A DNA stretch of 47,224 bases from Polyangia bacterium (GTDB lineage: Bacteria; Myxococcota_A; Polyangia; Nannocystales; Nannocystaceae), in NCBI GenBank assembly GCA_030430565.1, contig JAUIKS010000008.1:1-47224 (forward strand), given 5' to 3'. Each line of letters opens with the position of its first letter. Position 1 is the first letter of the stretch. Shown in pieces: positions 6,926-47,224 of this stretch. A program made the position numbers and the translations under genes. The notes beneath the pieces were generated by a model that was not told the DNA's origin, searched no databases, and worked only from the letters and a program-made list of their open reading frames with translations.

Positions 6926-9900
6926 CTAGCCGCGTTTTTTTTTTGACAGGTCCAGGTAGACCGAGGGGTCGCGCTCGTCCGGGTCTAGCCCGTCGCCGGC
7001 CCGCGCCCGCTGGCTCGCCGCGAGCGGCCCCTCGCCATGTTCTTCCTGTCCCTCAAGACCTGGCTGATTCATCAGCCCGACATCGCCGGGGCGACGCTCG
7101 CCCGCGGTCCCCATGCAGCTCTCGGGGCGAATAGCGAAGACCAGGAGCACGATCAGGATGATGAGCAAGACGACGATCGTGATCCGGCGCGCGCGCTCGG
7201 CAGGGTCGTCGCGGACGATCGCCAGGACCTCGGACTGCTGCGCGCTCGCGGCTCGAGCGCGCGCCGAGGTCGAGGCGCGCGGCTCCTCCTCCGCGGCCCC
7301 GCTGACCGCCGACGCGCCGGCTGCCGCCGCGCTGACCGGCGGCTTCTCGGTCACCGCCGGGTGCCTCCCCGAGATCTTCGCCACCGCGGCCTCGCTCGCG
7401 GACGCGACCTCGCCCTGTCGCCGCTTCCACGAATTCGACGAGCTGCCCGCGCGCGGCGGCGGGCCCTGATCGCGCTCGCGCTCCGCGGTCGACGTGAGCA
7501 CAAAGGGCGAGCGCCCGATCCGGGTCTTCTCGGTGGTCGAGGTGGTGCGGTGCGCGGCGGATGACTCGCTCGCGGACCCCGCCTCCGCGGCGGGAGCCTG
7601 GGTCTCGGGCGGCGTCGCCTCCGTCGGCTCCGGAGCCTGGCGCCGCCTCGCCAGGCGCTCACGCGCGGCGCTGCGTCCGGCCGCAGTCACCCCGGCGACG
7701 GCTGCGGCGCCCGCGACGTCCTTGACGATCGCGCCCGCCTGCTTGCCGATCGTCCCCGACACGCTGCGTCGCTTCGGCCCCGACGGGCGCGCCGGCGGGC
7801 TCGCGCCCTTTGAAGGGATCGGCGGCGCGATGGGAGTCGGCTTTACGCGCGGGTCAGCTTGCTGATGATCTTCGCGTGGCTGCCTCAGCGGTCGCGACGC
7901 GATCGTCGGGGGCTTCGGCGGCGCGCGCTTCGGATCCTGCTGCTTCGCGGTGGGCGGCTGGAACTTCGGGATCGCGCGCGAGGTCGCGCGACTCGGGAAG
8001 CGCGTGGAGGACAGGTGTAGCGGCTTCGAGCTGCGGGCTGGGGGCGTCGCCCCGCTCGGGAGCTTGTTCGACTTCGACTCGGGTCGCGTCGGCAGCTTCG
8101 GGAAGGGCCGCGAGGGCGCGCGCGTCGGCGGGGCGAGACGCGGTGTGCCCGGGGTCGCCTTCGGCTCCGGTCGTTTCTTGTCGTGGTCGCTCGGGGCGTC
8201 GGCTGGCGGCACCCAGGGCTCGGGAGGAGGTGAGGGCGCCGTCGGCTCGCGCTGCCGCTTCGCGCGTGGTGCATCCGAGGACGGCGCGTCGGCGGTCCAC
8301 GCCATGGCGGACGCCGGGATCACGATCGGGACCGGCGTGACCCGACGCCCCGACTGACTCGCGCTCGCCGAGGCGCCGGTGTCCTCCGGCTCCGCCTTCG
8401 CCCCTGGCTTCGCCGTCGCCTCGGGCGTGGGCTTCGCCGTGGGGTCGGGCTCCGCCGTCACCTCGGGCTGCTTCTCGAGCTTCTTCTCGAGCTTCTTCTC
8501 GAGCTTCGCCGCGGGCTTCTTCTCGAGCTTCGCCGCGGGCTTCTTCTCGAGCTTCGCCGCGGGCTTCGCCGCCGCCTTCGCGGTTGACTCGGGCTTCGTC
8601 GCGGGCGTCGCCTTCGCGGTTGACTCGGGCTTCGTCGCGGGCGTCGCCGTCGCGGTTGCCTCGGGCTTCGTCGCGGGCGTTGCCGTCGCCGGTGGCGTTA
8701 TCTCGGGCTCCGCCGCCTCGGGCTTCGCCGCCCGGGGCTTCGTCTCCTCTTCAGGCTTTGCTTCCGCCTCGGGCTTCGCCGCCGCCTCGGGCTTCGCCGC
8801 CTCGGGCTTCGTCTCCGCTTCAGGCTTTGCTCCCGCCTCGGGCTTCGCCGCCGCCTCGGGCTTCGTCGCCTCGGGCTTCGTCTCCGCTTCAGGCTTTGCT
8901 CCCGCCTCGGGCTTCGCCTCTTCCTTAGACTCCGCCTCGGACGGGGCCTCGGCCTCCGGCGTCGCCTCGACCTCGGCTTGCGACTCCTCGACGACACCGG
9001 CTCGATCCGAGGAGGCGTCATCGGCTGGAGCTCCGCGCGCGTCGTGGACCTCGGGCGCCGGCTCCGGCGCTGCCGCGAGTTCATCGGCGGGCGCGGGCTC
9101 AGCCCCGGGCGACGGCGCGGCCTCCGGCTGCGGTCGCTCGACGCTCGCGGCCGCGTCCCCCTGCTCCTCCGGCGGGATCAAGTCGACGACCGGGAGCTCG
9201 TCCGTCTCCTGCGCCGCCTCGGGCTGAGATGCTGGCTCGGGAGACAGGTCATCGACCGAGACCTTCTGGAACCTCGAGCTGACCGCTGGCTCGGCCTCCG
9301 GCGCCGGCGCCGGCGCTGGCTGTAGCGCGGGCTCGGGGGACAGGTCATCAACCGGCAGCTGCTGAAACCGCGAGCTGACCGCTGGCTCGGTCTTCGGCGC
9401 GGGCTCGGGCGCTGGCTGCGTCGCTGGCTCGGGGGACAGGTCATCCACCGCCACGCGCTGGAACCGCGAGCTGACCGCTGGCGCCGGCGCCGGGGCGGGC
9501 TGCGGCGCCGGGGCGGGCTGCGGCGCGAGGGCGGCCGCCGCCTTCAGCTCCTCCTCGTCGAAGGGCACCTCCATCCACATCGACACGTTGACGCGGACGC
9601 CGTGCTTGCGGCCGTACTTGACGATGACGGTGAGGATCCACTCCGCGCAGGCGTTCGCCTCGCGCGTCGAGGAGAGCACGCGGCTGCGCGCGAGCTCGCG
9701 ACCGTTGCGCGAGCGAATCGAGAGGTAGTGGCCGTCGCCCTCGGGCTTGACCTTGTAGCTCGAGCGCATCAACGCGGCCTGGATCAGCGAGCGGACGCCG
9801 TTGTCGCGCGAGCGCGTGGAGCCGTAGCCGTGGCTGTACAGCAGCGCCGCGCCGCCCTCGTCGTTGAAGTGGAAGTAGTAGCGCTTCTTGCCGCCCTCCT

Positions 9901-10729
9901 CGACGACGAAGACCTCGAAGCCGGGCTCGCCGGAGCGTGACGATCGATCGAGGTCGTAGCCGGCCTTGGCGGTCTTCCGGCGCGTGCGCTTGCCGAGGTA
10001 GCGACGCTCCTCCGCCGGCGCGCTCGCGATCATCCAGGCGATCGCCGCGTCGCGCTCGGCGCTCGAGTCGAACCACCGGCTGCGCGCCAGCTCGCGCCCG
10101 TTCCGCGCGGTGATGACGAAGTACCAGCGCCCCGAGGACTCGCGCTTGGTGTAGCGGCGCTCGTCGCTGAGGGCGCGCAGCAGCGATCGCAGCAATTCGT
10201 CGCGCGGGTACTTCGCTACGACGCCGCGCGTGAACAGCAGCGGCTGACCGCGCTCGTCGTTGTAGTGCGCGCAGAACAGGCCGTCGCGCGCGCGCTGGAC
10301 CGCCTCGGCCCCGGCGACGCCCGAGCGCGAGCGCTGCTCTAGATCGTAGCGGATCGCCACGTTGAGCAGGACGGTGCGCCCGCGGCTGCGCGCGCGCGTG
10401 ATCGGGTAGCGGACCTTAAAGCTCTCGCCCGAGGCGGCCCACGCTCTGAGCGCGCCCAGCAGCTCCTCCGCCTCCTCCCGCTGCTCGCGGGCGTCGCTCG
10501 TCGCGAGCGTCGCGCCGAGCTCGTCGGTCACGACGAAGCCGAAGCCGCCCTCGACCGCGTCCACGCGCGTGTCGTCGCGCTCGCGCAGCTCGTCGACCGT
10601 CTCCTCGATCTTCTTGAGGCAGACGTCTCGATCCCCGTACTCGGGGCTGACTAACGCGACCGCGCCGCTGTCCAGGATCAGCTGGAAAGAGGTCTCGCCG
10701 CGGGGGTTCTGGAGCAGTCGGAAGTGCAT
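6926..10729 (-). CDS. Giant (1267 aa) protein with N-terminal tandem DUF1508/YegP-like repeats, a huge low-complexity P/A/E/K region and a C-terminal transmembrane tail anchor
   Basis: Six YegP-like modules, e.g. GRWYFVITARNGRELARSRWFDSSAERDAAIAWM, GHYLSIRSRNGRELARSRVLSSTREANACAEWI and KRYYFHFNDEGGAALLYSHGYGSTRSRDNG. Three copies of ...PAPEPA..VSSRFQ..VDDLSPEPA..., then KPEA(A/G/E)n, ATPATKPE and KKPAAKLEKK repeats, then a basic P/S/R/K-rich segment. Single hydrophobic helix ITIVVLLIILIVLLVFAI about 50 residues from the C-terminus. No N-terminal signal peptide. Confidence 0.7.
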   Translation of the reverse strand: MHFRLLQNPRGETSFQLILDSGAVALVSPEYGDRDVCLKKIEETVDELRERDDTRVDAVEGGFGFVVTDELGATLATSDAREQREEAEELLGALRAWAASGESFKVRYPITRARSRGRTVLLNVAIRYDLEQRSRSGVAGAEAVQRARDGLFCAHYNDERGQPLLFTRGVVAKYPRDELLRSLLRALSDERRYTKRESSGRWYFVITARNGRELARSRWFDSSAERDAAIAWMIASAPAEERRYLGKRTRRKTAKAGYDLDRSSRSGEPGFEVFVVEEGGKKRYYFHFNDEGGAALLYSHGYGSTRSRDNGVRSLIQAALMRSSYKVKPEGDGHYLSIRSRNGRELARSRVLSSTREANACAEWILTVIVKYGRKHGVRVNVSMWMEVPFDEEELKAAAALAPQPAPAPQPAPAPAPAVSSRFQRVAVDDLSPEPATQPAPEPAPKTEPAVSSRFQQLPVDDLSPEPALQPAPAPAPEAEPAVSSRFQKVSVDDLSPEPASQPEAAQETDELPVVDLIPPEEQGDAAASVERPQPEAAPSPGAEPAPADELAAAPEPAPEVHDARGAPADDASSDRAGVVEESQAEVEATPEAEAPSEAESKEEAKPEAGAKPEAETKPEATKPEAAAKPEAGAKPEAETKPEAAKPEAAAKPEAEAKPEEETKPRAAKPEAAEPEITPPATATPATKPEATATATPATKPESTAKATPATKPESTAKAAAKPAAKLEKKPAAKLEKKPAAKLEKKLEKKLEKQPEVTAEPDPTAKPTPEATAKPGAKAEPEDTGASASASQSGRRVTPVPIVIPASAMAWTADAPSSDAPRAKRQREPTAPSPPPEPWVPPADAPSDHDKKRPEPKATPGTPRLAPPTRAPSRPFPKLPTRPESKSNKLPSGATPPARSSKPLHLSSTRFPSRATSRAIPKFQPPTAKQQDPKRAPPKPPTIASRPLRQPREDHQQADPRVKPTPIAPPIPSKGASPPARPSGPKRRSVSGTIGKQAGAIVKDVAGAAAVAGVTAAGRSAARERLARRRQAPEPTEATPPETQAPAAEAGSASESSAAHRTTSTTEKTRIGRSPFVLTSTAERERDQGPPPRAGSSSNSWKRRQGEVASASEAAVAKISGRHPAVTEKPPVSAAAAGASAVSGAAEEEPRASTSARARAASAQQSEVLAIVRDDPAERARRITIVVLLIILIVLLVFAIRPESCMGTAGERRPGDVGLMNQPGLEGQEEHGEGPLAASQRARAGDGLDPDERDPSVYLDLSKKKRG
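8468..8930. repeat. Nested in-frame tandem repeats inside the giant gene: 24/30-bp KKPAAKLE units, 45-bp ATPATKPEST units and about 60-bp KPEA-type units
   Basis: gagcttcttctcgagcttcgccgcgggcttcttctc x3. ttcgcggttgactcgggcttcgtcgcgggcgtcgcc x3. Repeated gcctcgggcttcgccgcc / gcttcaggctttgctcccgcc blocks. Confidence 0.85.
9230..9490. repeat. Three tandem copies of a ~93-99 bp unit encoding the PA(P)EPA-VSSRFQ-VDDLSPEPA motif
   Basis: gctggctcggg(a/g)gacaggtcatc(g/a/c)acc... gaaccgcgagctgaccgctggctcgg recurs at about 9231, 9330 and 9424. Confidence 0.85.
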
Positions 10730-11214
10730 GGGGATGACGCTGCGCGCGGGCTCGGGCGCAGCGGGCGGGTCAGTTCAGACAGGTCTCTTGAGGCATATTT
10801 AGATCAGCGCGCGAGCTCGCGGTACGCCCGAGGCCGCGCCCGTCCTGATCGGGGCGCGCCGGGGCCCGCCCGCGCGGGCGCGCCTTGGGAACGCGCGCTG
10901 TGACTACGTAGACCATCGCTCGTGGCGCTGCGGCGTCCGCCGCGTCGCGTACCGCATCGTAGCGTGGATCCGGCGCGGGGCGCTGTTTCTCGCGAGCGCG
11001 AGGAGGCCGACGCCGCGAGCGCTGACGCGCGCGAGCGCTGGCGCGCCCGCTCGCGCGCAATTTCGTCACTGTCCTACGCGACATATCCCTGGGGACAACG
11101 CGATCCGAGCGGCGCCGCGCCGCGCGGCGCCGCGCGAGCTGACCATTTGCACATACAGGAAACGACGCGCGCGCGGACTTGCGCGAGCGCGGCCCGAGGG
11201 TTTACTTCACGGGC

Positions 11215-14538: not shown

Positions 14539-15870
14539 GTGGACGAGGCCGACATGTCTGAATCATCAGTCGATGACGCAGACACCCAAGAGCGCGACGC
14601 GACCCCGCAGCCGGGGCTCTTGCAGGTCTGGTCCAAGGGCGGTCCGGCCCACCGGGCGCTCCCCTGCGCGCCCGAGCTGTTCCTCGGTCGTGACGGGGAG
14701 CGCGGCGCGGTCGCGCTCGGTGATCGCCGCGTCTCGCGTCGTCACTGCCGCGTGAAGTTCGACGGCGCGGCCTGGCTGGTCGACGACCTCGGGAGCAGCA
14801 ACGGGACGTTCGTCGACGGCAACCGCGTCTCGACGAAGCTCTTCACGCGGCCGCCGCGGGTGCTCCGCCTCGGCCACTGCCTGCTCGTGCCCGTCGCGGA
14901 TCTCGCGAAGGTCGCCGGGCGCGTCGAGACCCAGGACGACGCGGTCGCGGGGCCGCGACTCCGTCGCCTGCTCGCCCGCGCCCGCGACTTCGCCGCGGTC
15001 AGCGACACCCTGCTCATCCGCGGCGAGGCCGGCGTCGGCAAGCGGCGGATCGCGCGCGCGTTTCATCACCGCGCCGCCGGCCCGGGGCGCCCCTTCGTCG
15101 AGGTCGACTGCGCGAACCTGCCCGAAGGAACCGCCGAGCGACTGCTCTTCGGCGCCCGCGTCGGCGGGCCTGAGTTCGGCTACATGCTCGCCGCCGACGG
15201 CGGCACGCTGCTGCTCAGCGAACCAGGCGCGCTCGACGATCGGGTCCAGCGCAGGCTCCTGCGCGCGCTCGAGACCCGGGCCGTGCTCGCGGTCGGCGGC
15301 GCGCGGCCCAGGCCCGTCGACCTCCGGCTCTGCGTCACGACCCGCCACGACCCACGCCAGCAGCTCCGCGAGCGTCGCCTTCGTCAGGACCTGTACGTTC
15401 GCGTCGGTCGCCCCGAGCTCGAGGTGCCCCCGCTGCGCGAGCGCGTGGAGGAGATCCCCTGCCTGATCCAGCGCGCGCTCCGGCTCGCGCGCCCGGGGAC
15501 CGGCGCGCACGCCTCGCTCGTCGAGCGCTGCCTGCTGCGCCACTGGCCCGGCAACACCCGCGAGCTGCTCGCCGAGCTCGAGGACGCGCGCCGGCACGCC
15601 CGCCGAGACGGCCGCGACGAGGTCCGCGGCGACGATCTAGACGAGCTCGCCGGCCGTCGCCCGGAGTCCCGCGAGCCGGCGTCGCCCCGTCGACGCGCGA
15701 GCACGCTGCGCCGCGCGGCCGTCGAGAACGCGCTCGTCGAGGCCGGGGGCGAGCTCTCGCGCGCCGCCAAGCTGCTCGGCGTCCACCGCTCGCAGCTGCG
15801 TCGCTGGCTCGCGCGCAAGGGCATGGATCCCGTCGCGTACGCGCGGTCGAACGAGCGGCAGACCTCGTAG
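14539..15870 (+). CDS. FHA-domain transcriptional regulator with a degenerate sigma-54-activator-type AAA+ domain and a C-terminal Fis-type HTH
   Basis: FHA: LFLGRD..RRHCRV..DGAAWLVDDLGSSNGTFVDGNRV. AAA+: Walker A GEAGVGKRRIARAFH, RLLRALE. GAFTGA is replaced by GARVGG, and Walker B GGTLLLSE has S for D. HTH: SRAAKLLGVHRSQLRRWLARKG. Confidence 0.8.
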   Translation: MDEADMSESSVDDADTQERDATPQPGLLQVWSKGGPAHRALPCAPELFLGRDGERGAVALGDRRVSRRHCRVKFDGAAWLVDDLGSSNGTFVDGNRVSTKLFTRPPRVLRLGHCLLVPVADLAKVAGRVETQDDAVAGPRLRRLLARARDFAAVSDTLLIRGEAGVGKRRIARAFHHRAAGPGRPFVEVDCANLPEGTAERLLFGARVGGPEFGYMLAADGGTLLLSEPGALDDRVQRRLLRALETRAVLAVGGARPRPVDLRLCVTTRHDPRQQLRERRLRQDLYVRVGRPELEVPPLRERVEEIPCLIQRALRLARPGTGAHASLVERCLLRHWPGNTRELLAELEDARRHARRDGRDEVRGDDLDELAGRRPESREPASPRRRASTLRRAAVENALVEAGGELSRAAKLLGVHRSQLRRWLARKGMDPVAYARSNERQTS

Positions 15871-39250: not shown

Positions 39251-40465
39251 ATGGCCTTCCGCCCGTTCACGCGTGAGCCCATCACCTTGCCGGGGCGCGC
39301 GGCGCTGCCCGCCGTCTCGCTCGCGCTCGTCGGAGACACCGGCGCGGGGAAGACGACCCTACTCGTGGCCCTGACCCACGCGCTCGCGCGCCGCGGCTGG
39401 GCGCCGCGCGCCGACTTTGACCAGCTCGACGTGACGCCCTACGAGCACGAGCGTGGGAGCTCGATCACGCTCTCGCACGTGCGCGCGCGCTCGGAGCGGC
39501 GCCGGCTCGTCTGGATCGACTGCCCCGGTCACTCCGCGTTAACGCGCAACGCCTACAACGGGATCGCGCAGGCGGACCAGGGCGTGCTCGTGGTCGCCGC
39601 CGATCAGGGCCTGATGCCGCAGTCGCGCGAGCACGTGCGGCTCGCGGCGCATCTCGGCGTCTCCGACTGGGTCGTGTACATCAGCAAGCTCGACGCCGCA
39701 GGCGTGAACGAGGAGCTGCTCGAGCTCTCGGAGCTCGAGGTCCGGGAGTTCTTTAACAGCCTCGAGCTCGAGGGCGACGGGCTGACGATCCTGCGCGGCG
39801 CGCCTCGGGCCGCGCTCGAGTCCGGGCTGAAGACGCACGCCGACTCGCTGTGGGCGCTGCTCGACGCCGTCGACTCGCTCCCGCTGCCGCGCCGCGATGT
39901 CGACGCGCCGCTGCTGATGCCCGTCGCCGACACCTTCTCGCGCTACCGCCCGCGCGCGGTGATCGTCACCGGAAAGCTGGCGCGCGGCGCGGTCGAGCTG
40001 GGCGAGTCGATCGAGCTGCTGGGCTACGGCGAGCGCTGGCGCGGGGAGGTCACGAGCCTGCACCGCGAGCGCGTGCCCGCGACGCGCGCGACGGCCGGTG
40101 ACCACGCGGGCCTGCTGCTCGAGGGGCGCACGGTCTGGAACACGCGGCGTGGGCACGTCGTGGCGGCGCCTGAGAGCGTGACCCCGCGCGACACGCTCCG
40201 CGCGGAGCTGCGGATGTTGACGACCGCCGAGGGCGGCTACGGCCACGCGGTGTTCCGCGGCTTTCGCCCGCAGCTGCACGTGCACACCGCCGACGTGGCG
40301 ACGCGCCTCGACGCCGCGCGCGACCGCGACTTCATGTTCTCGCCCGGCGAGCCCGCGCGCGTCGTGCTGGAGCTGCAGCACCCCATCGTGGCCCTCGCGG
40401 CGCAGCCGATCGTGCTGCGCGCGAGCCGAGCGACGGTCGCGCTCGGCGCGGTCGTCAACGACTAA
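39251..40465 (+). CDS. Diverged EF-Tu-like translational-GTPase paralog (three EF-Tu domains, non-canonical G1 and G4 motifs)
   Basis: Collinear with EF-Tu over the full length. GDTGAGKTTL vs GHVDHGKTTL. RADFDQLDVTPYEHERGSSITLSHV vs [24 protein letters not shown]. DCPGH conserved. VVYISKLD vs IVFLNKCD. EELLELSELEVREFF vs EELLELVEMEVRELL. LLMPVADTFS vs FLLPIEDVFS. GGYGHAVFRGFRPQLHVHTADV vs [22 protein letters not shown]. GAGGA 7 nt upstream of the ATG. Confidence 0.8.
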   Translation: MAFRPFTREPITLPGRAALPAVSLALVGDTGAGKTTLLVALTHALARRGWAPRADFDQLDVTPYEHERGSSITLSHVRARSERRRLVWIDCPGHSALTRNAYNGIAQADQGVLVVAADQGLMPQSREHVRLAAHLGVSDWVVYISKLDAAGVNEELLELSELEVREFFNSLELEGDGLTILRGAPRAALESGLKTHADSLWALLDAVDSLPLPRRDVDAPLLMPVADTFSRYRPRAVIVTGKLARGAVELGESIELLGYGERWRGEVTSLHRERVPATRATAGDHAGLLLEGRTVWNTRRGHVVAAPESVTPRDTLRAELRMLTTAEGGYGHAVFRGFRPQLHVHTADVATRLDAARDRDFMFSPGEPARVVLELQHPIVALAAQPIVLRASRATVALGAVVND

Positions 40466-40528: not shown

Positions 40529-41749
40529 GTGTCGACCTTCACGCTCGCCTCGCTGGGCGCGTTCGCGCTCGTGGTGCTCAGCGCCGCGCTCTCGCGCGGG
40601 GTCGTCTTCGCGATCTTCGCGGCCATACTGCTGGGGGTCCACACCGCGGTCGCTACCGCGCTGTTCGGACAGGTCCCTGAAAACCTGTCTTTTGTGCCCT
40701 ACGCGCTACAGGCCGCCGTCTATCTGCACTTCGCCTCGCTCACGCGCCCGCGCATGCGCCCTTGGTGGTACCGCGCGCTGATCACCTACCCGGCGCTGTG
40801 GTTCGTGAGCGCGACCTTCCTGGCGTTCCCGTGGGCGATCGCGGCGGCCCTCGGCGCGCGCCCCTATCTCTGGTGGCTGCCCTTCGCGCTCGCGCTGCTG
40901 GGCCTGCTCGAGTCGCTGTGGACGCGCCCTGAGCGAGTGACGCTCCCGCTCGCGGGCGCGGACGCCGGGCGGTCGCTGCGCCGCGTCGAGCACGAGCTGT
41001 CGCGCCAGCGCCAGGCTGAGGCGCCCCGAGCCCCCGACGGCGCGCGACGTCTGCGGATCGTTCAGATCACGGATCCGCACCTCGGCCCGTTCATGTCCGC
41101 GCGCCGCCTGCACGCGATCTGCGAGCGCGCGGTGGCAGCGGATCCAGACCTCGTGCTGCTGACCGGCGACTTCTTCACGATGGAGTCCTCGTCGACGCCG
41201 GGCCTGCTGGCGCGATCGCTCGCGCCGCTGCGCGCGCTCGAGGGCCGCGTGTTCGCGTGCTTCGGCAACCACGATCACGAGGCGCCCAGCTTCGTGCGCG
41301 CCGGCCTGGACGAGGTGGGCGCGCGCCTGCTGGTCGACGAGGCGGCGGTGGTCGAGACGTCCGCGGGGCCGGTGCAGCTGCTCGGCTTTGACTTCGCGTG
41401 GCGCGACCGCGCGGCCCGGATGAAGGAGGTCTGCGCCCGCGCCCCGCGGCTCGCGGGCGCGCTGCGCCTCGCGCTGCTGCACGACCCGGGCGCGTTTCGA
41501 CACCTGCCCGAAGGGCAAGCTGACTTGGTGCTCTCGGGGCACACGCACGGCGGGCACGTCGGCCTCGTCAGCCTCGGGCTGCCGTGGACCTTCATCGGCG
41601 CCGTCTCGAGCGTGCCCGACTTCGGGCTGTGGGCGCGCGGTCGCGACCGGCTCTACGTGCACCGCGGCACAGGCCACTACGGCTACCCGCTCCGCCTCGG
41701 CGTCCCGGCCGAGGAGAGCGTGCTCGAGCTCGAGCTGCCCGCGGCCTGA
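40529..41749 (+). CDS. Membrane-anchored metallophosphoesterase (calcineurin-like phosphoesterase, YaeI/YkuE-like)
   Basis: About 130-aa N-terminal region with 4-5 TM helices. Then IVQITDPHLG, LTGDFF, CFGNHDHE, LSGHTHGGH phosphoesterase motifs. GTG start 64 nt after the EF-Tu-like gene. Confidence 0.75.
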   Translation: MSTFTLASLGAFALVVLSAALSRGVVFAIFAAILLGVHTAVATALFGQVPENLSFVPYALQAAVYLHFASLTRPRMRPWWYRALITYPALWFVSATFLAFPWAIAAALGARPYLWWLPFALALLGLLESLWTRPERVTLPLAGADAGRSLRRVEHELSRQRQAEAPRAPDGARRLRIVQITDPHLGPFMSARRLHAICERAVAADPDLVLLTGDFFTMESSSTPGLLARSLAPLRALEGRVFACFGNHDHEAPSFVRAGLDEVGARLLVDEAAVVETSAGPVQLLGFDFAWRDRAARMKEVCARAPRLAGALRLALLHDPGAFRHLPEGQADLVLSGHTHGGHVGLVSLGLPWTFIGAVSSVPDFGLWARGRDRLYVHRGTGHYGYPLRLGVPAEESVLELELPAA

Positions 41750-41838: not shown

Positions 41839-42951
41839 ATGGCGCGGGACCGGCGGTGGATCTGGGTAGTGGTGTTCGGCGCGGCGTCCACCGCCGGCTG
41901 CTTCATCGACGCCGGCTCGAGCTCGGGCGACGCGACCTCGGCGACGAGCGACGCGGAGGAGAGCGTGGGGGCCTCGACCTCCTCGGGCGCGACCGCGGTC
42001 ACGACCGCGCCCGGCACCTCCGCGACGACGAGCTCCGGCTCGTCGGGGTCGAACCTCACGAGCTCGACGAGCTCGAGCGACACCTGCCAGGGCGTCCCCG
42101 AGTGCCAGCCGGGGGCCACCCAGTCCGGTGAGGCCTGCGGGGGGTGCAGCGTCGATCAGCGCGTATGCGGCGAGGACTGCACGTGGGGCCCGTGGGCCTG
42201 CGTCGCCGACGAGAGCGCCTGCGCGGTGTGGATCCTCCGCGACGGCGCGCGCGAGTGGGACGCGCGGCCGATCGAGCTCAACGGCGCCGCGCTCAACACC
42301 CCGGACGACCCGATCCAGGCGGCCTTCAACCTCGAGCTCGGCAGCACCGCCTTCGTGCTCACCGAGAAGGAGTACCACGGGCTCGACCTCGAGAGCCTCA
42401 CCTGGAACGCGCGAGGCGACCGTGAGGACATGTTTGATCAGGCGACCGAGCAGAACCTCGAGGGCGCGGTCTCGATCAACACGGGGCAGTCCCTGGGCGA
42501 GCCGCCGACGAGCGCCGAGCGGATCGTGCTCTACAGCGACGAGGACTACTGGGTCTTCCTCCTGGAGGTCAACGAGCTGATCGCGGAGTTCGTCGAGGAG
42601 GGGCCGTGCTGCGGCGACACGAACGACTGGCTCGGCCCGCTCGCGCCGGATCCGGCGGACATGCGCGCTATATGGCTGGACATGATCGGCAACCCGGCGT
42701 GGAACCCCATCAACCTGGTCAATTGCCCGCCGCTGATGGACGGGACGCCGCTGACGAGCTACGCCGGCTACGCGGTCATCGACGACACCGTTCGCCTGCG
42801 GGAGTACTCGGGCTGCGGGCAGTTCGTCGGCAGCTTCGGGTACGCGGAGTACGCTCCGTTCACGTACCCGAACCGCCCGCCCGCCCCGGAGGAGCTGGGC
42901 GCGGCGCTGTTCCACGACGGCGATCTGTACGTGTTCAAGTCCGATATCTGA
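41839..42951 (+). CDS. Hypothetical secreted lipoprotein with an N-terminal Cys-rich module
   Basis: ATG at 41839. WIWVVVFGAASTAGC lipobox. S/T-rich linker. CQGVPECQPGATQSGEACGGCSVDQRVCGEDCTWGPWAC. Confidence 0.55.
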   Translation: MARDRRWIWVVVFGAASTAGCFIDAGSSSGDATSATSDAEESVGASTSSGATAVTTAPGTSATTSSGSSGSNLTSSTSSSDTCQGVPECQPGATQSGEACGGCSVDQRVCGEDCTWGPWACVADESACAVWILRDGAREWDARPIELNGAALNTPDDPIQAAFNLELGSTAFVLTEKEYHGLDLESLTWNARGDREDMFDQATEQNLEGAVSINTGQSLGEPPTSAERIVLYSDEDYWVFLLEVNELIAEFVEEGPCCGDTNDWLGPLAPDPADMRAIWLDMIGNPAWNPINLVNCPPLMDGTPLTSYAGYAVIDDTVRLREYSGCGQFVGSFGYAEYAPFTYPNRPPAPEELGAALFHDGDLYVFKSDI

Positions 42952-42987
42952 GCGCCAGGTGGGCTGAGCTCAGCCCGCGCCCGACCG

Positions 42988-43003
42988 TGGCACACCGCTT
43001 GCT
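42988..43003 (+). promoter_or_regulatory. Candidate sigma-54 (-24/-12) promoter upstream of hemG
   Basis: TGGCACaccgcTTGC matches TGGCAC-N5-TTGC exactly, with the GG and GC dinucleotides 12 nt apart. Lies about 90 nt upstream of the hemG ATG. A 16-bp perfect palindrome gggctgagctcagccc at 42961..42976 sits 12 nt upstream. Confidence 0.4.
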
Positions 43004-43093
43004 TTTACTGCGGGCGTGACCGACACGGAGCGCCCGCCCGAGGTCACCTCGTGGGCGCGAGAACTCGCGACCCGGGTACGTCGAGGAGCCACC

Positions 43094-43705
43094 ATGAAGC
43101 CGATACTCATCCTGTACGCGACCCGCGAGGGTCACACCAAGAAGGTCTGTGAGCACATCCGCGAGAGCCTGCGCGCCCGCGCCCACGCCGTCGAGCTGCG
43201 AGACGTCCGCGAGCTACCCCGCGAGTTCGCGCTCGATCGCTACGCGGCCGTGATCCTCGGCGCGTCGGTTCACCTCGGCCGCCACGAGGGCGCGATGGTC
43301 AAGTTCGTCACCCGCGCGCGCGCGCAGCTCGAGCCGCTCCCGACCGCGCTGCTCACCGTATGCCTGACGGAGGCGACGATCGAGGACGAGCGCAAGCCCG
43401 CGGAGGTCCGGCGGCAGGCGAGCGAGGACCTCGCGGGGATCATGGAGCGCTTCTACGAGACCACCGGGTGGCACCCCGACCGCGCCGCGCCGGTCGCGGG
43501 CGCGCTGATGTACCGCGAGTACGGCCTCGTCGTCCGTTGGATGATGCGACGGATCGCGCGCTCGACCAGCGGCGACACCGACACCTCGCGCAACCACGTC
43601 TACACCAACTGGGACGCGCTCGACCACTTCGTCGAGGACTTCATCCAGCGCTTCGTCCAGACCCTCGAGCCCGCGAGCGCGGCGAGCGTGAACACGGCGC
43701 CGTGA
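43094..43705 (+). CDS. hemG: Flavodoxin-like protoporphyrinogen IX dehydrogenase (menaquinone-dependent), HemG family
   Basis: MKPILILYATREGHTKKV flavodoxin start with GAGGAG at a 5-nt spacer. LMYREYGLVVRWMMRRIA and GDTDTSRNHVYTNWDALDHFVEDF match the HemG-specific insertion (G-ETDT-S-K-x-VYTDW). Confidence 0.75.
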   Translation: MKPILILYATREGHTKKVCEHIRESLRARAHAVELRDVRELPREFALDRYAAVILGASVHLGRHEGAMVKFVTRARAQLEPLPTALLTVCLTEATIEDERKPAEVRRQASEDLAGIMERFYETTGWHPDRAAPVAGALMYREYGLVVRWMMRRIARSTSGDTDTSRNHVYTNWDALDHFVEDFIQRFVQTLEPASAASVNTAP

Positions 43706-43927
43706 AAGGTTCCCCTCGGGAGGGGAAAACCCCCGACCCCGCGCGACCCTCCGATCGAAATTAACACGGTCCCGCGCCCGATTTATCGCGTGAACGACGA
43801 GCGCGCGCGAGGTCCTGCGCGACATGTTCTGTGGGACAATGACGCGATGCGGCGCGCTCGAGGCCGAGGACCTCGAGGGCCGCTCCCGACGAGCGCGGCG
43901 CCCTCGCCACGATCACCCTCACCGCCA

Positions 43928-44752
43928 ATGTTCGCCTACAGCCACAATTTCGCCAGGGTCACCGCGCGGCGCGGAGGCCTCGTCTCGCTGAAGTTCGAGC
44001 TCGACCGGGCCCGCTGGCCGTGGCTCTCGCTGCCGCCGCAGCACCCGGTGCTGCTCGAGAAGTACCAGTACTTCGCGACCATGACCGCCGTGATGGCGCA
44101 GCCCGACTACGACCCCTCGCGCTCCACCGCGCTGACCCACTTCTCGTGGAGCTGCCCGCCGCTGCGCGACCCCGCCCACGCGACCGACGCGTGGTGCCAG
44201 CTCGAGGATGGCCGCTTCACCGGGGAGCTGCGCGCGGCCGACGCGGTCGTCGCTCGCTTCGCTGGCCTCGGGCACTACTTCGACGATCGCGACTTCGTCG
44301 CGTGGCGCGAGCGCGCCCGCGCCAAGGTCCTGGCGCGGGAGCCTGGGCGCCCGCTGGAGTACGCCTCGCCCGAGGCGGTCGGCCTCGACGCCGCGGGCGT
44401 GAGCTTCGTCGGTCCGCTCGCCCTGCGCGACGGCGTCCCCGCCGCGCCCGCGCTCGTGACCCGCGCCCGCGGCCTCGCGCCCGCGCACCCGTTTCACACG
44501 GGCAGCGGCGACCACGTCAACGCCGGGCACCTGTTCGACTGCGCGCTCCAGGCGGCGCACCTCGTGCTCGCGCGGCCGCTTACCTGCATCGGAGGACAGG
44601 CGTCGTTCACCCGCTTCGTCGAGCTCGACGCGCGCTTCGAGCTCCGCGTCACCCAGTCGACGCGCGAAGACCCCACCCCGCAGGCCCGCTTCGCGGTCAT
44701 CCAGCAGGGTCGAGACTGCGCCCAGCTCAGCCTGGGCTTCGCGCCGGGATAG
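43928..44752 (+). CDS. Double hotdog-fold protein resembling AfsA-type (gamma-butyrolactone/butenolide synthase family) domains
   Basis: Second half HPFHTGSGDHVNAGHLFDCALQAAHLVL...ASFTRFVELDARFELRV resembles the AfsA repeat (DHvPGMlllEAaRQa...f.rfvEld.p). The first half has a similar architecture. Start chosen at MFAYSHNF; the upstream part of ORF 43790.. is R/P-rich. Confidence 0.45.
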   Translation: MFAYSHNFARVTARRGGLVSLKFELDRARWPWLSLPPQHPVLLEKYQYFATMTAVMAQPDYDPSRSTALTHFSWSCPPLRDPAHATDAWCQLEDGRFTGELRAADAVVARFAGLGHYFDDRDFVAWRERARAKVLAREPGRPLEYASPEAVGLDAAGVSFVGPLALRDGVPAAPALVTRARGLAPAHPFHTGSGDHVNAGHLFDCALQAAHLVLARPLTCIGGQASFTRFVELDARFELRVTQSTREDPTPQARFAVIQQGRDCAQLSLGFAPG

Positions 44753-44777: not shown

Positions 44778-45383
44778 ATGAATCACCCGAGGAACAACCA
44801 TCGGAACGCAGACCGCCGGAGCACAGGCGGGAGGACCACCCTGTGGCAGGGGACGTCAGTCGTGTTGCGGGCGATCACAGAGGAGGACATCCCTCGCTTT
44901 CTGTCTGATGGCGTCGTCGATGACATGCGACTCTACGGAGATGGATACGTCCCCTTCCCGGTGACCGACGACGTACGCCGCGAGCTGCTGCTGCGCAGCA
45001 CTCGTCCACCGGAGGGCGACGAGTGTTCGCTCGCGATCGAGGCGGCGGGTGAGCTCGTCGGCTCCATCAGCACCGACAGCTGCGATCCCCGGAGTGGTTC
45101 GCTCTGGTATGGCGTCGCCATATTTCGCGAGCATCGTCGCCGCGGCTACGCCATCGACGCGGTCACGGTCCTGCTGCGATACTTCTTTCAGGAGCGACGC
45201 TATCACCGAGCCGGCGCGCGGGTTTACAGCTTCAATGAGCCCTCGATCAACCTGCAGGCCCGTCTCGGGTTTCGTGAGGAGGGCCGGCTGCGTGACGCGG
45301 TCTTCACCATGGGCGCGCGCTTCGACGTGCTTCTGTACGGCATGACCTCGGCTGAGTTCGACGAGCGCTGGGGCTCGCGCTGA
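44778..45383 (+). CDS. GNAT-family N-acetyltransferase (RimJ/RimL-like)
   Basis: VVLRAITEEDIPRFL..., SLAIEAAGELVGSIS..., FREHRRRGYAIDAV..., NEPSINLQARLGFREEG. An alternative GTG start at 44862 would remove an odd 28-aa N-terminus. Confidence 0.7.
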   Translation: MNHPRNNHRNADRRSTGGRTTLWQGTSVVLRAITEEDIPRFLSDGVVDDMRLYGDGYVPFPVTDDVRRELLLRSTRPPEGDECSLAIEAAGELVGSISTDSCDPRSGSLWYGVAIFREHRRRGYAIDAVTVLLRYFFQERRYHRAGARVYSFNEPSINLQARLGFREEGRLRDAVFTMGARFDVLLYGMTSAEFDERWGSR

Positions 45384-45494: not shown

Positions 45495-47224
45495 TCACGC
45501 GCTCGATGACCGCGGCGCGTCACGGTCGGCCCCGCGCGGCAGCCAGACCCGGAACTCGGATCCGCGGCCGGGCTCGCTCTCGACCTCGATGACCCCGCCC
45601 AGCAGCTCGCAGAAGCGACGCGCGACCGCCAGGCTCACGCCTGTCCCTTCGAACTGACGCGTCGACGAGTCGTCCTCCTGCGTGAACATCTCGAAGATCG
45701 AGCGCCGCGCGTCCGGGCCGATCCCGATCCCCGAGTCGATGACCTCAAAGCGCACGCCGGCGGTCCCCTCCCGGGCCTCGGCGGACACGCGGACTTGGAT
45801 CTCGCCGCCCGAGGTGAACCGGCAGGCGTTGTCGAGGAGCGTGGTGAGGCAGTAGCGCAGCATCCGCTCGTCGGTCTCGAGGGGGGCCAGCCCCGCCTCG
45901 CACTCGCAGCGGAGCGTGTTGCCGCCGGCGTCCGCGAGCGCCTCAAAGCGCGCGGAGAGCTCGCCGATCAACGGCTCGATCGTGACGGACGCGAGGCGCG
46001 CGGAGATCATGTCGGTCTCGATCCGGGTGAGCTCGAGGATCGAGCTGACGGATCGAAGCAGGCGCACCCCGGCGCTGTGGATGGACCGCAGATCGTGCTC
46101 GACCGAGTCGTAGTGCCCCTCGGCGATGCTGTCGGAGACGAGCTCCGTGTAGCCGAGGATCGCGTTGAGCGGCGTCCGCAGCTCGTGGCTCATGTTCAGG
46201 AGGAAACGGGTCTTGGCGCGATCGGCCGAGAGCGCGGCGAGTCGCGCCTCGTTGAGGTTCTTGTACAGCTGCGCGTTCGTCAGCGAGATCGCGACCTGAT
46301 TGCCGAGCTGCTTGATCAGCGTCAGGCGGCGCGGCGTGAAGGCGCCGCGCGAGAGCGCGTTCTCGAGGTACACGACGCACGCCAGCCGCCCCTGGTGCAG
46401 GATAGGCGTGCACAGCACCGACCGCGGGCGACGCTCGACGATGTACGGGTCGTCGCCGTGGACCGGATCCGCGGGCGCGTCGCTCAGCACGACATCCTCC
46501 TGCAGGCGCGCGGCGAATTGAACGAGGCGCGTCGGCGCCCCCTCAAATTCCTCGAGCGGGACGGCCAGGCCGATCCTCGTCTCGTCGCGCTCGACCGTTG
46601 TCTCGGCCGCCACGAACAGCTCGCCGTCGCGCGCGAGCAGGATGACCCCCCGCCGCGCGCCGGCGTTCTGCACCAGCAGCGTCGACAGCCGCATGAGCAG
46701 CTTGTCGAGCTCGAGCTCCCCCGAGATCGCCTGCGAGGCCCGCATGATCGTGTCGGCGTCGATCAGGAACGAGGAGGTCGCGCGGGTGACCGTGACGGAG
46801 TGGCCGCTCGCGCTCGTGCTCTCAGCGCGCGGCGAGGCCGGCATCAGCGTCCCGAACTCGCGCGCGAGGATCACGACTTTCTCGCGCGCGCCCCACCCTC
46901 GATACGCGTCGAGCGCGTCGGAGAGGTAGTGGCGAGCGAGCGACGCGTGGTCGTCCCCCCGCGTGAGCACGTACCGCAGCGCGCACTCGCAGGCGAGCGC
47001 CTCGACGTTGGGCGCGCTGTGGGTCCGCGCCAGCGTGATCGCCCGGTTGTAGTCCGTCAGCGCGTCGCTCCTCCCCGCGACCCTGCGCAGCTCGGCCCGC
47101 GCGAGCGCGGCGCGGGCGGCGTAGTTCGCCGGCGCGCTGGCGGCCCAGGTCTCGAGCTTCGCTAGCGCGCCTCGGATCGCCTTGACCTGTCCCCGACGCG
47201 CGCGCCCGCGGGAGCGCGCGGCCG
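45495..47224 (-). CDS. GAF-domain sensor histidine kinase, C-terminal part of a larger multidomain sensor (5'-partial; continues beyond the window end)
   Basis: H-box FLLNMSHELRTPLNAILGYTELV. HATPase GTGVSLAVARRFCELLGGVIEVESEPGRGSEFRV. GAF-like segment upstream. The frame stays open to nt 47224 (...TDYNRAITLARTHSAPNVEALACECALRY..ARHYLSDALDAYRGWGA), typical of the TPR/AAA linker of STK-AAA-GAF-HK fusion sensors. Confidence 0.75.
   Translation of the reverse strand, partial: AARSRGRARRGQVKAIRGALAKLETWAASAPANYAARAALARAELRRVAGRSDALTDYNRAITLARTHSAPNVEALACECALRYVLTRGDDHASLARHYLSDALDAYRGWGAREKVVILAREFGTLMPASPRAESTSASGHSVTVTRATSSFLIDADTIMRASQAISGELELDKLLMRLSTLLVQNAGARRGVILLARDGELFVAAETTVERDETRIGLAVPLEEFEGAPTRLVQFAARLQEDVVLSDAPADPVHGDDPYIVERRPRSVLCTPILHQGRLACVVYLENALSRGAFTPRRLTLIKQLGNQVAISLTNAQLYKNLNEARLAALSADRAKTRFLLNMSHELRTPLNAILGYTELVSDSIAEGHYDSVEHDLRSIHSAGVRLLRSVSSILELTRIETDMISARLASVTIEPLIGELSARFEALADAGGNTLRCECEAGLAPLETDERMLRYCLTTLLDNACRFTSGGEIQVRVSAEAREGTAGVRFEVIDSGIGIGPDARRSIFEMFTQEDDSSTRQFEGTGVSLAVARRFCELLGGVIEVESEPGRGSEFRVWLPRGADRDAPRSSSA

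Follow-up and report, generated by a model that had tools for sequence, protein, structure and literature searches.

The penultimate step of heme synthesis can proceed without oxygen through the quinone-linked enzyme HemG. In Escherichia coli the hemG gene (b3850) follows trkH, and we know of no σ54 promoter in front of it. Myxococcus xanthus uses HemY for this step and Geobacter metallireducens possesses both hemY and hemG, in a report that gives the presence of these genes and not their regulation (PMC2700814). The published consensus for σ54 promoters is yTGGCACGrnnnTTGCw, and enhancer sites, many of which possess perfect dyad symmetry, are usually found over 50 bp upstream of the promoter (PMC12754779). 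In M. xanthus, where σ54 is vital, the katB and ahpC promoters are activated by the regulator PexR (PMC12754779). Transcripts with a 5' untranslated region of no more than 5 nt are classed as leaderless (Beck and Moll 2018, as cited in PMC12754779). A full-text literature search recovered no paper linking hemG or protoporphyrinogen oxidase to regulation by σ54 or rpoN.

Here, we describe a computational analysis of a 47,224-nucleotide stretch of DNA, referred to below as the window, in which an element of the -24/-12 type lies upstream of a gene encoding a HemG-like flavodoxin. With a probability of roughly 0.8, we read this element as a functional σ54 (RpoN) promoter that drives the HemG-family gene. 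σ54 RNA polymerase would bind the GG (-24) and GC (-12) elements to form a closed complex, and an upstream-bound, ATP-hydrolyzing enhancer-binding protein would remodel that complex, so that transcription would begin near position 43014 only then. We infer from sequence features that the promoter depends on both rpoN and an activator, and the requirement for an activator would make expression of the HemG-like gene conditional rather than constitutive.

The predicted promoter element and the gene that follows it

The core of the putative promoter comprises TGGCAC (42988-42993), the spacer ACCGC (42994-42998) and TTGC (42999-43002), and TTTT follows directly (Table 1). Its GG doublet (42989-42990, -25/-24) and GC doublet (43001-43002, -13/-12) are 10 nt apart within TGGCAC-N5-TTGC, the sequence hallmark of a σ54 promoter. 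The core begins 37 nt downstream of the stop codon of a putative lipoprotein gene, and its -12 element is located 92 nt upstream of the ATG of the HemG-like gene, on the gene strand and with no terminator in between. The initial annotation of this DNA had called the element the only exact -24/-12 consensus in the window, and this was borne out: TGGCAC-N5-TTGC occurs once on the two strands of the 47 kb (0.03 expected), and allowing one mismatch yields 0 additional sites (1.18 expected), the motif being rarer in the window than chance predicts. The letters and coordinates that it gave for the motif and for an adjacent palindrome, as well as the placement of the motif after the lipoprotein stop and before the ATG, were likewise confirmed. 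On a matrix built from orthologous sites only, with the window's own site left out, this site scores 17.5 bits and is the best in the window, the runner-up reaching 11.2. It agrees with the published consensus at TGGCAC, at TTGC and at the next T. The transcription start in Table 1 is predicted from canonical σ54 promoter geometry; the initial annotation had put it at about 43015. A promoter scan of 42700-43900 detected no σ70-like promoter, and rpoN is absent from the 47-kb window.

Table 1. Features of the promoter region and the genes on either side, in window positions
Feature	Position	Strand	Basis or description
Upstream gene, putative lipoprotein	41839..42951	+	Likely start ATG 41839 (MARDRRWIWVVVFGAASTAGC...), stop 42949-42951
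Inverted repeat CGGGTACG-N18-CGTACCCG	42837..42870		Inside upstream coding region, ~-177 to -144 from predicted start
16-bp perfect palindrome GGGCTGAGCTCAGCCC	42961..42976		10 nt past upstream stop; centre ~-45 from predicted start
Predicted σ54 (-24/-12) promoter core TGGCACACCGCTTGCTT	42988..43004	+	Consensus match and matrix score
Predicted transcription start	43014 (+/- 2 nt)	+	12 nt past the C of the -12 GC
Leader, open frame from GTG 43016 (predicted +3)	43016..43093	+	In frame with the HemG-like gene, +26 codons (VTDTERPPEVTSWARELATRVRRGAT)
Direct-repeat copy GCGCCCGCCCGAGG of 42977-42990 (GCGCCCGACCGTGG)	43030..43043	+	Degenerate repeat, 53 nt downstream
Shine-Dalgarno GAGGAG	43083..43088	+	5 nt before ATG 43094; conserved with nearest relative (L001)
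HemG-family flavodoxin gene, 203 aa, Flavodoxin_5; putative menaquinone-dependent protoporphyrinogen IX dehydrogenase	43094..43705	+	Pfam, NCBIfam, E. coli HemG alignment

The predicted product of the downstream gene matches the Pfam family Flavodoxin_5 (PF12724) with residues 5-165 across profile positions 1-145 of 145 (E 6.6e-34). Its full-length alignment with E. coli HemG (residues 5-182 against 4-170; 30% identity, E 3e-28) includes the C-terminal HemG-specific segment WxPDR...AGAL.Y..Y...DT...YTDW, and many of the protein's homologues bear the JGI name 'menaquinone-dependent protoporphyrinogen oxidase'. At the level of sequence, these matches establish membership in the HemG family. The best NCBIfam model is the HemG equivalog NF008316, on which the protein scores 118.7 bits, below the cut-off of 142 bits. 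Because the score lies under this cut-off, protoporphyrinogen oxidase activity is a function that we only infer. Thus the label hemG in the initial annotation holds for the family, given the Flavodoxin_5 domain and the E. coli match, but not for the equivalog. Among solved structures, sequence matches were to distant flavodoxins and none was to a HemG structure.

The upstream gene has a GC3 of 0.87 in its frame, and its translation contains a lipobox-like STAGC; it has no Pfam or NCBIfam match, and the lipoprotein identity of its product is plausible. Further upstream on the same strand, a gene for a divergent EF-Tu-like GTPase paralogue (39251-40465, +; 273-290 bits against EF-Tu cut-offs of 449-522) adjoins a gene for a YaeI-like metallophosphoesterase (40529-41749). 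A hairpin just past the stop of the HemG-like gene (43709-43728) is not significant. Downstream of that gene lies a reading frame with a weak match to ScbA/BarX γ-butyrolactone synthases (43790-44752, +; E 1e-6, far under the cut-off); next come genes for a GNAT acetyltransferase (44778-45383) and, in convergent orientation, a GAF histidine kinase (45495-46970). In a distant part of the window, a 1282-aa ORF (6926-10774, -) carries tandem repeats (8462-8920 and 9231-9534; periods 12, 24, 36, 69 and 96 nt) and a strong AT skew of -0.59 in 8001-9000; its sole Pfam match is a weak one to DUF1508, and it is a low-complexity repeat protein.

Recurrence of the promoter motif before related genes

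The genome is 72% GC, and its nearest gene homologues come from Myxococcales and Polyangiaceae. An initial scan of genome contigs with this single protein as query found no close relative. The nearest relative that could be retrieved, a metagenome contig (L001), encodes a protein with 83-84% identity; its upstream gene differs from that of the window and encodes a divergent response regulator, and its start codon is preceded by TGGCACACGGCTTGCTT. Among close relatives fetched singly, the motif is present in L163, L168 and L166/L167 and absent from L164/L165. The 16-mer TGGCACACGGCTTGCT is common to L001 and L166/L167 and differs by one base from that of the window, and in a three-way alignment of the window, L001 and L166 the island of identity is restricted to the promoter core.

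Besides L001, 160 further loci were compared, encoding relatives that are 38-54% identical, with start codons fixed by alignment; most of the aligned starts read MKP...YATREGHT. Upstream regions were searched for TGGCAC-N5-TTGC with up to 2 mismatches, the GG and GC being obligatory (a GG-N10-GC anchor). In 35 of the 161 loci the gene strand carries such a match, the T of which falls between -27 and -50 relative to the start codon. The background frequency of such anchored matches, 0.22 per kb over 955 kb, predicts 1.3 in this zone, and the reverse strand of the same upstream regions, at 0.47 per kb, predicts 2.8. The flanking DNA of the 35 loci cannot be aligned. The two elements are thus conserved while their flanks diverge (35/161 against 1-3 expected), the pattern of conservation that marks a σ54 promoter. 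Those positions of the orthologous sites that were free of selection in the search also fit yTGGCACGrnnnTTGCw, with G at -20 in 50% and A or T at -11 in 72%. Scored by the matrix, sites of at least 10 bits occur in the zone in 43/158 loci, compared with 1/632 coding windows and 4/158 reverse-strand windows; these matrix counts are partly circular, the 35 training sites being among those scored, and the consensus-based counts are not.

The relatives that bear the motif belong to the Myxococcota, where 9/13 loci have a site, and to the Acidobacteriota, with about 10/35. Sites were found in none of the loci from Haloarchaea (0/9), Actinobacteria (0/5), Chloroflexi (0/3), Planctomycetes (0/3) or Betaproteobacteria (0/9); around three quarters of all related loci are without the motif, including those of the betaproteobacteria and Planctomycetes, groups that have rpoN. 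No neighbouring genes are conserved across the loci, the large clusters being antisense shadow ORFs. The predicted promoter arrangement is inherited, a promoter of the same type standing before orthologues across Myxococcota and Acidobacteriota, and the σ54 promoter call of the initial annotation gains strong support from this conservation in two phyla. That annotation had also considered σ54 control of a heme-biosynthesis step unusual. The literature search agrees in having found no precedent for hemG, but the putative promoter is a conserved feature of the family and not a peculiarity of this genome. The gene is a conserved, previously unreported target of predicted σ54 control.

Comparison with L001 offers hints of how the window's promoter may have come to its present position. 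The window's promoter lies about 68 nt further upstream than that of L001, and a 19-nt block missing from the window coincides exactly with the proximal promoter of L001, both flanks of the block being homologous (GAGAACTCGCGACCCGGG / ACGTCGAGGAGCC). A degenerate direct-repeat copy of 42977-42990, the stretch leading into the -24 element, lies downstream (Table 1) and may be a decayed second promoter copy. Both observations point to a relocation of the promoter by duplication and loss, though the lost block and the repeat disagree on the details. The words CGACGTCG and ACGTCGAGG, which L001, L166 and the window share close to their promoters, were dropped because they are common in this DNA.

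Alternative readings of the motif, the product and the palindrome

The motif might be a chance match in GC-rich intergenic DNA, with transcription of the gene coming from a different promoter or from read-through of the lipoprotein gene. An exact match does appear in 3/100 shuffles of the window, and the 142-nt gap to the upstream gene contains no detected terminator. This reading leaves unexplained the fixed position of the motif before orthologues in 35 loci whose flanks cannot be aligned and the 16-mer, one base off that of the window, in two relatives, and no σ70-like site lies nearby to serve in its place. Given the recurrence in relatives, the shared 16-mer and the confinement of identity to the core, a chance origin is excluded for practical purposes, and we hold the reading as a whole to be extremely improbable. 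A σ54 promoter being the preferred reading of the motif, the product of the gene could still be a HemG-like flavodoxin with a different redox role, for example a stress-induced, quinone-linked electron carrier, in which case no heme step would be under σ54 control. In keeping with such a role, the protein scores below the curated HemG cut-off and is linked to heme genes in no locus. In addition, E. coli HemG has R, Y and H in place of H60, H64 and E65 (ASVHxGxHE, residues 58-65), which are invariant in the 39 aligned homologues; this signature may mark a functional difference between the two. Against it stand the full-length alignment with E. coli HemG through the C-terminal HemG-specific segment and the JGI orthology assigned to many members, and E. 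coli hemG is likewise unlinked to heme genes. We regard a different redox role as possible but doubtful, and retain a HemG-type protoporphyrinogen oxidase as the putative product.

The palindrome upstream of the core had been put forward in the initial annotation as a terminator stem or a regulator site, and neither suggestion held up. A role as the binding site of an activator or other dimeric regulator of this promoter would fit its perfect dyad symmetry, which is common among enhancer sites, and its position directly upstream of the promoter. Palindromes of this kind are, however, at chance frequency here: the window has 7 perfect palindromes of at least 16 bp, dinucleotide shuffles have 5.8 on average, and 99% of the shuffles contain at least one. 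The palindrome is present in a single copy with its centre nearer to the start than the usual distance of enhancers, it is not of the PexR type (CACCG-N6-CGGTG), and L001 and L166 keep the promoter without any such palindrome; a regulator site is therefore, in our judgement, quite improbable. The one reading that keeps some plausibility is, at most, that of a weak transcript-end hairpin of the upstream gene, which would end the lipoprotein transcript and shield the σ54 promoter from read-through. The palindrome starts just past the stop codon and can fold into a GC-rich stem of 6 bp with a 4-nt loop, extended by GCGC/GCGC, and the segment 42940-42990 folds with -18.9 kcal/mol. Yet no T-run follows the stem and the terminator scan made no call, so that an intrinsic terminator is not recognized although a stem is present, and the stability of the hairpin equals that of shuffled sequence (z = -0.49). 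We consider such a hairpin unlikely, and the palindrome is probably incidental and not part of the mechanism by which the putative σ54 promoter would operate.

Leader geometry and candidate activators

The distance between promoter and start codon divides the 35 motif-bearing loci into two groups. In 16 of them the gap from the 17-mer to the ATG is 10-14 nt, no Shine-Dalgarno sequence is present and the predicted leader measures 1-5 nt; in the other 19 the gap is 17-33 nt and nearly always ends in a Shine-Dalgarno sequence of the GGAG type. A gap of 10-14 nt without a Shine-Dalgarno sequence implies leaderless or near-leaderless transcripts from the predicted σ54 promoter. Near-leaderless geometry of this kind was noted in L002, L003, L010, L019, L021, L033, L041, L084 and L088, and further in L093, L107, L111, L125, L139, L141, L145, L163 and L168.

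Measured against the 27-50 nt rule of its relatives, the window is an outlier, as its promoter is 106 nt away from the ATG, the 17-mer is followed by 89 nt and the predicted leader measures 80 nt. So is L166, whose promoter is at -181. In the window, a GTG at the predicted +3 opens a frame that runs into the HemG-like gene (Table 1). The first 14 codons of this frame have a GC3 of 14/14, compared with 8/13 and 9/13 in the other frames, and the GTG may serve as a leaderless start for an N-terminally extended form of the protein. In L166, the frame at 2349-2504 starts with an ATG at +4 and comprises 51 codons; its TGA overlaps the GTG with which the gene begins, and its GC3 is 45/51, against 38/50 and 32/50 in the other frames. 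The site in L152 (1138-1173) lies at -81 and is followed by an 11-codon frame, MTSLYVDAKSP, which resembles the gene's own N-terminus, MTSICILY. All three loci therefore have a start codon at the predicted transcription start even though the promoter is far from the gene, and the ancestral unit may have been a promoter joined to a start codon; the leader frames may be translated. A riboswitch or other structured leader was rejected: the 80-nt leader has no Rfam match, and its folding is no better than that of shuffled sequence (z = -0.42).

From this geometry it is possible, though less likely than not, that the HemG-type flavodoxin gene of Myxococcota and Acidobacteriota is a conserved σ54 target whose promoter is fused to the translation start and yields a leaderless or near-leaderless transcript. 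Where the promoter has been displaced, as in the window, L166 and L152, a start codon would have been kept at the transcription start, producing an in-frame extension or a coupled short upstream frame. If so, activator-dependent σ54 transcription would be paired with leaderless translation, a pairing not previously described, at a conditional, oxygen-independent step of heme synthesis.

The activator does not appear to be encoded nearby. The 47-kb window encodes no enhancer-binding protein that has a GAFTGA loop, and in only 5/168 loci (L010, L156, L103, L152 and L057) is there a canonical activator gene within 3 kb of the HemG-like gene, which by a rough estimate is no more than chance in genomes rich in such genes; an activator encoded next to its target was rejected on these grounds. 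L010 has a divergent PAS kinase together with an NtrC-type regulator, in L156 a universal stress protein gene lies upstream and the activator gene downstream, and in L103 the activator is followed by a CBS-domain protein and then by the HemG-like gene. Separately, a protein encoded in the window at 14539-15870 (+) combines an FHA domain, a Sigma54_activat domain (110 bits) and HTH_8, with ERLLFGARVGGPEFGY where the GAFTGA loop would be expected; it is a degenerate regulator resembling enhancer-binding proteins, one that probably cannot contact σ54.

The search for an enhancer found no conserved site. PexR-type repeats (CACCG-N6-CGGTG) are absent from the vicinity of the promoter and at chance level in the window as a whole, and a k-mer search detected no upstream motif shared by the Myxococcota loci. 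The only word that this search returned was clade-specific, AACCAAC in Bryobacteraceae-like loci (7/40 loci against 5/1265 control segments). The sequence ACTGCATTTGnAtAACCAAC, common to the Bryobacteraceae-like loci L009, L084, L088, L091, L099, L100, L101 and L141 at 45-65 nt upstream of the -24 element, is a candidate for a clade-specific enhancer or a site for a DNA-bending protein. In the window itself, the inverted repeat inside the upstream coding region (Table 1) has 8-bp arms, an 18-nt spacer and a typical enhancer distance; all 3 copies of CGGGTACG in the 47 kb lie at 42837-42844 (+), 42863-42870 (-) and 43073-43080 (+). Neither L001 nor L166 conserves the repeat, and as a candidate enhancer site it is speculative, the observation being post hoc. 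As to the signal, our guess, held with low confidence, is that low oxygen or redox stress induces an accessory, oxygen-independent, quinone-linked protoporphyrinogen oxidase.

If the promoter works as proposed, a HemG-type enzyme in two large soil phyla would be switched on by a signal-dependent activator rather than serving as a housekeeping function, and the σ54 regulons of Myxococcota and Acidobacteriota, which are poorly charted, would gain a defined member that is easy to test. With the conserved promoter as bait, the cognate activator and its signal could be sought, and the promoter's geometry raises the question of whether leaderless messages arise from σ54 promoters. For annotation the value is modest but real, since the start codon and the promoter of this gene family would be predictable together.

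Each of the described systems resembles this locus in part. E. coli HemG shares the Flavodoxin_5 domain and a similar length with the predicted protein but is without the clade-specific, invariant H-x3-HE motif of the window's family. G. metallireducens, a former deltaproteobacterium whose relatives use HemY, offers a precedent for a HemG-type enzyme as a second or accessory protoporphyrinogen oxidase (PMC2700814). The leaderless mRNAs described in PMC12754779 are matched by the predicted leaders of 1-5 nt in 16 related loci and by the window's GTG at the predicted +3, with the difference that the former arise from a primary-sigma (σA-type) promoter, while here the promoter is of the σ54 type and its start is predicted. 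The window's element differs from the canonical σ54 consensus in having A and not G at -20, and the space upstream of it is a coding region; it differs from the PexR-type promoters in that no CACCG-N6-CGGTG lies nearby and neither a cognate activator nor an enhancer was found in the window. With the PexR-activated katB and ahpC promoters of M. xanthus it nevertheless shares GG and GC doublets 10 nt apart and a place shortly before a gene on that gene's strand, and it occurs in a phylum with a vital σ54 and numerous enhancer-binding proteins (PMC12754779).
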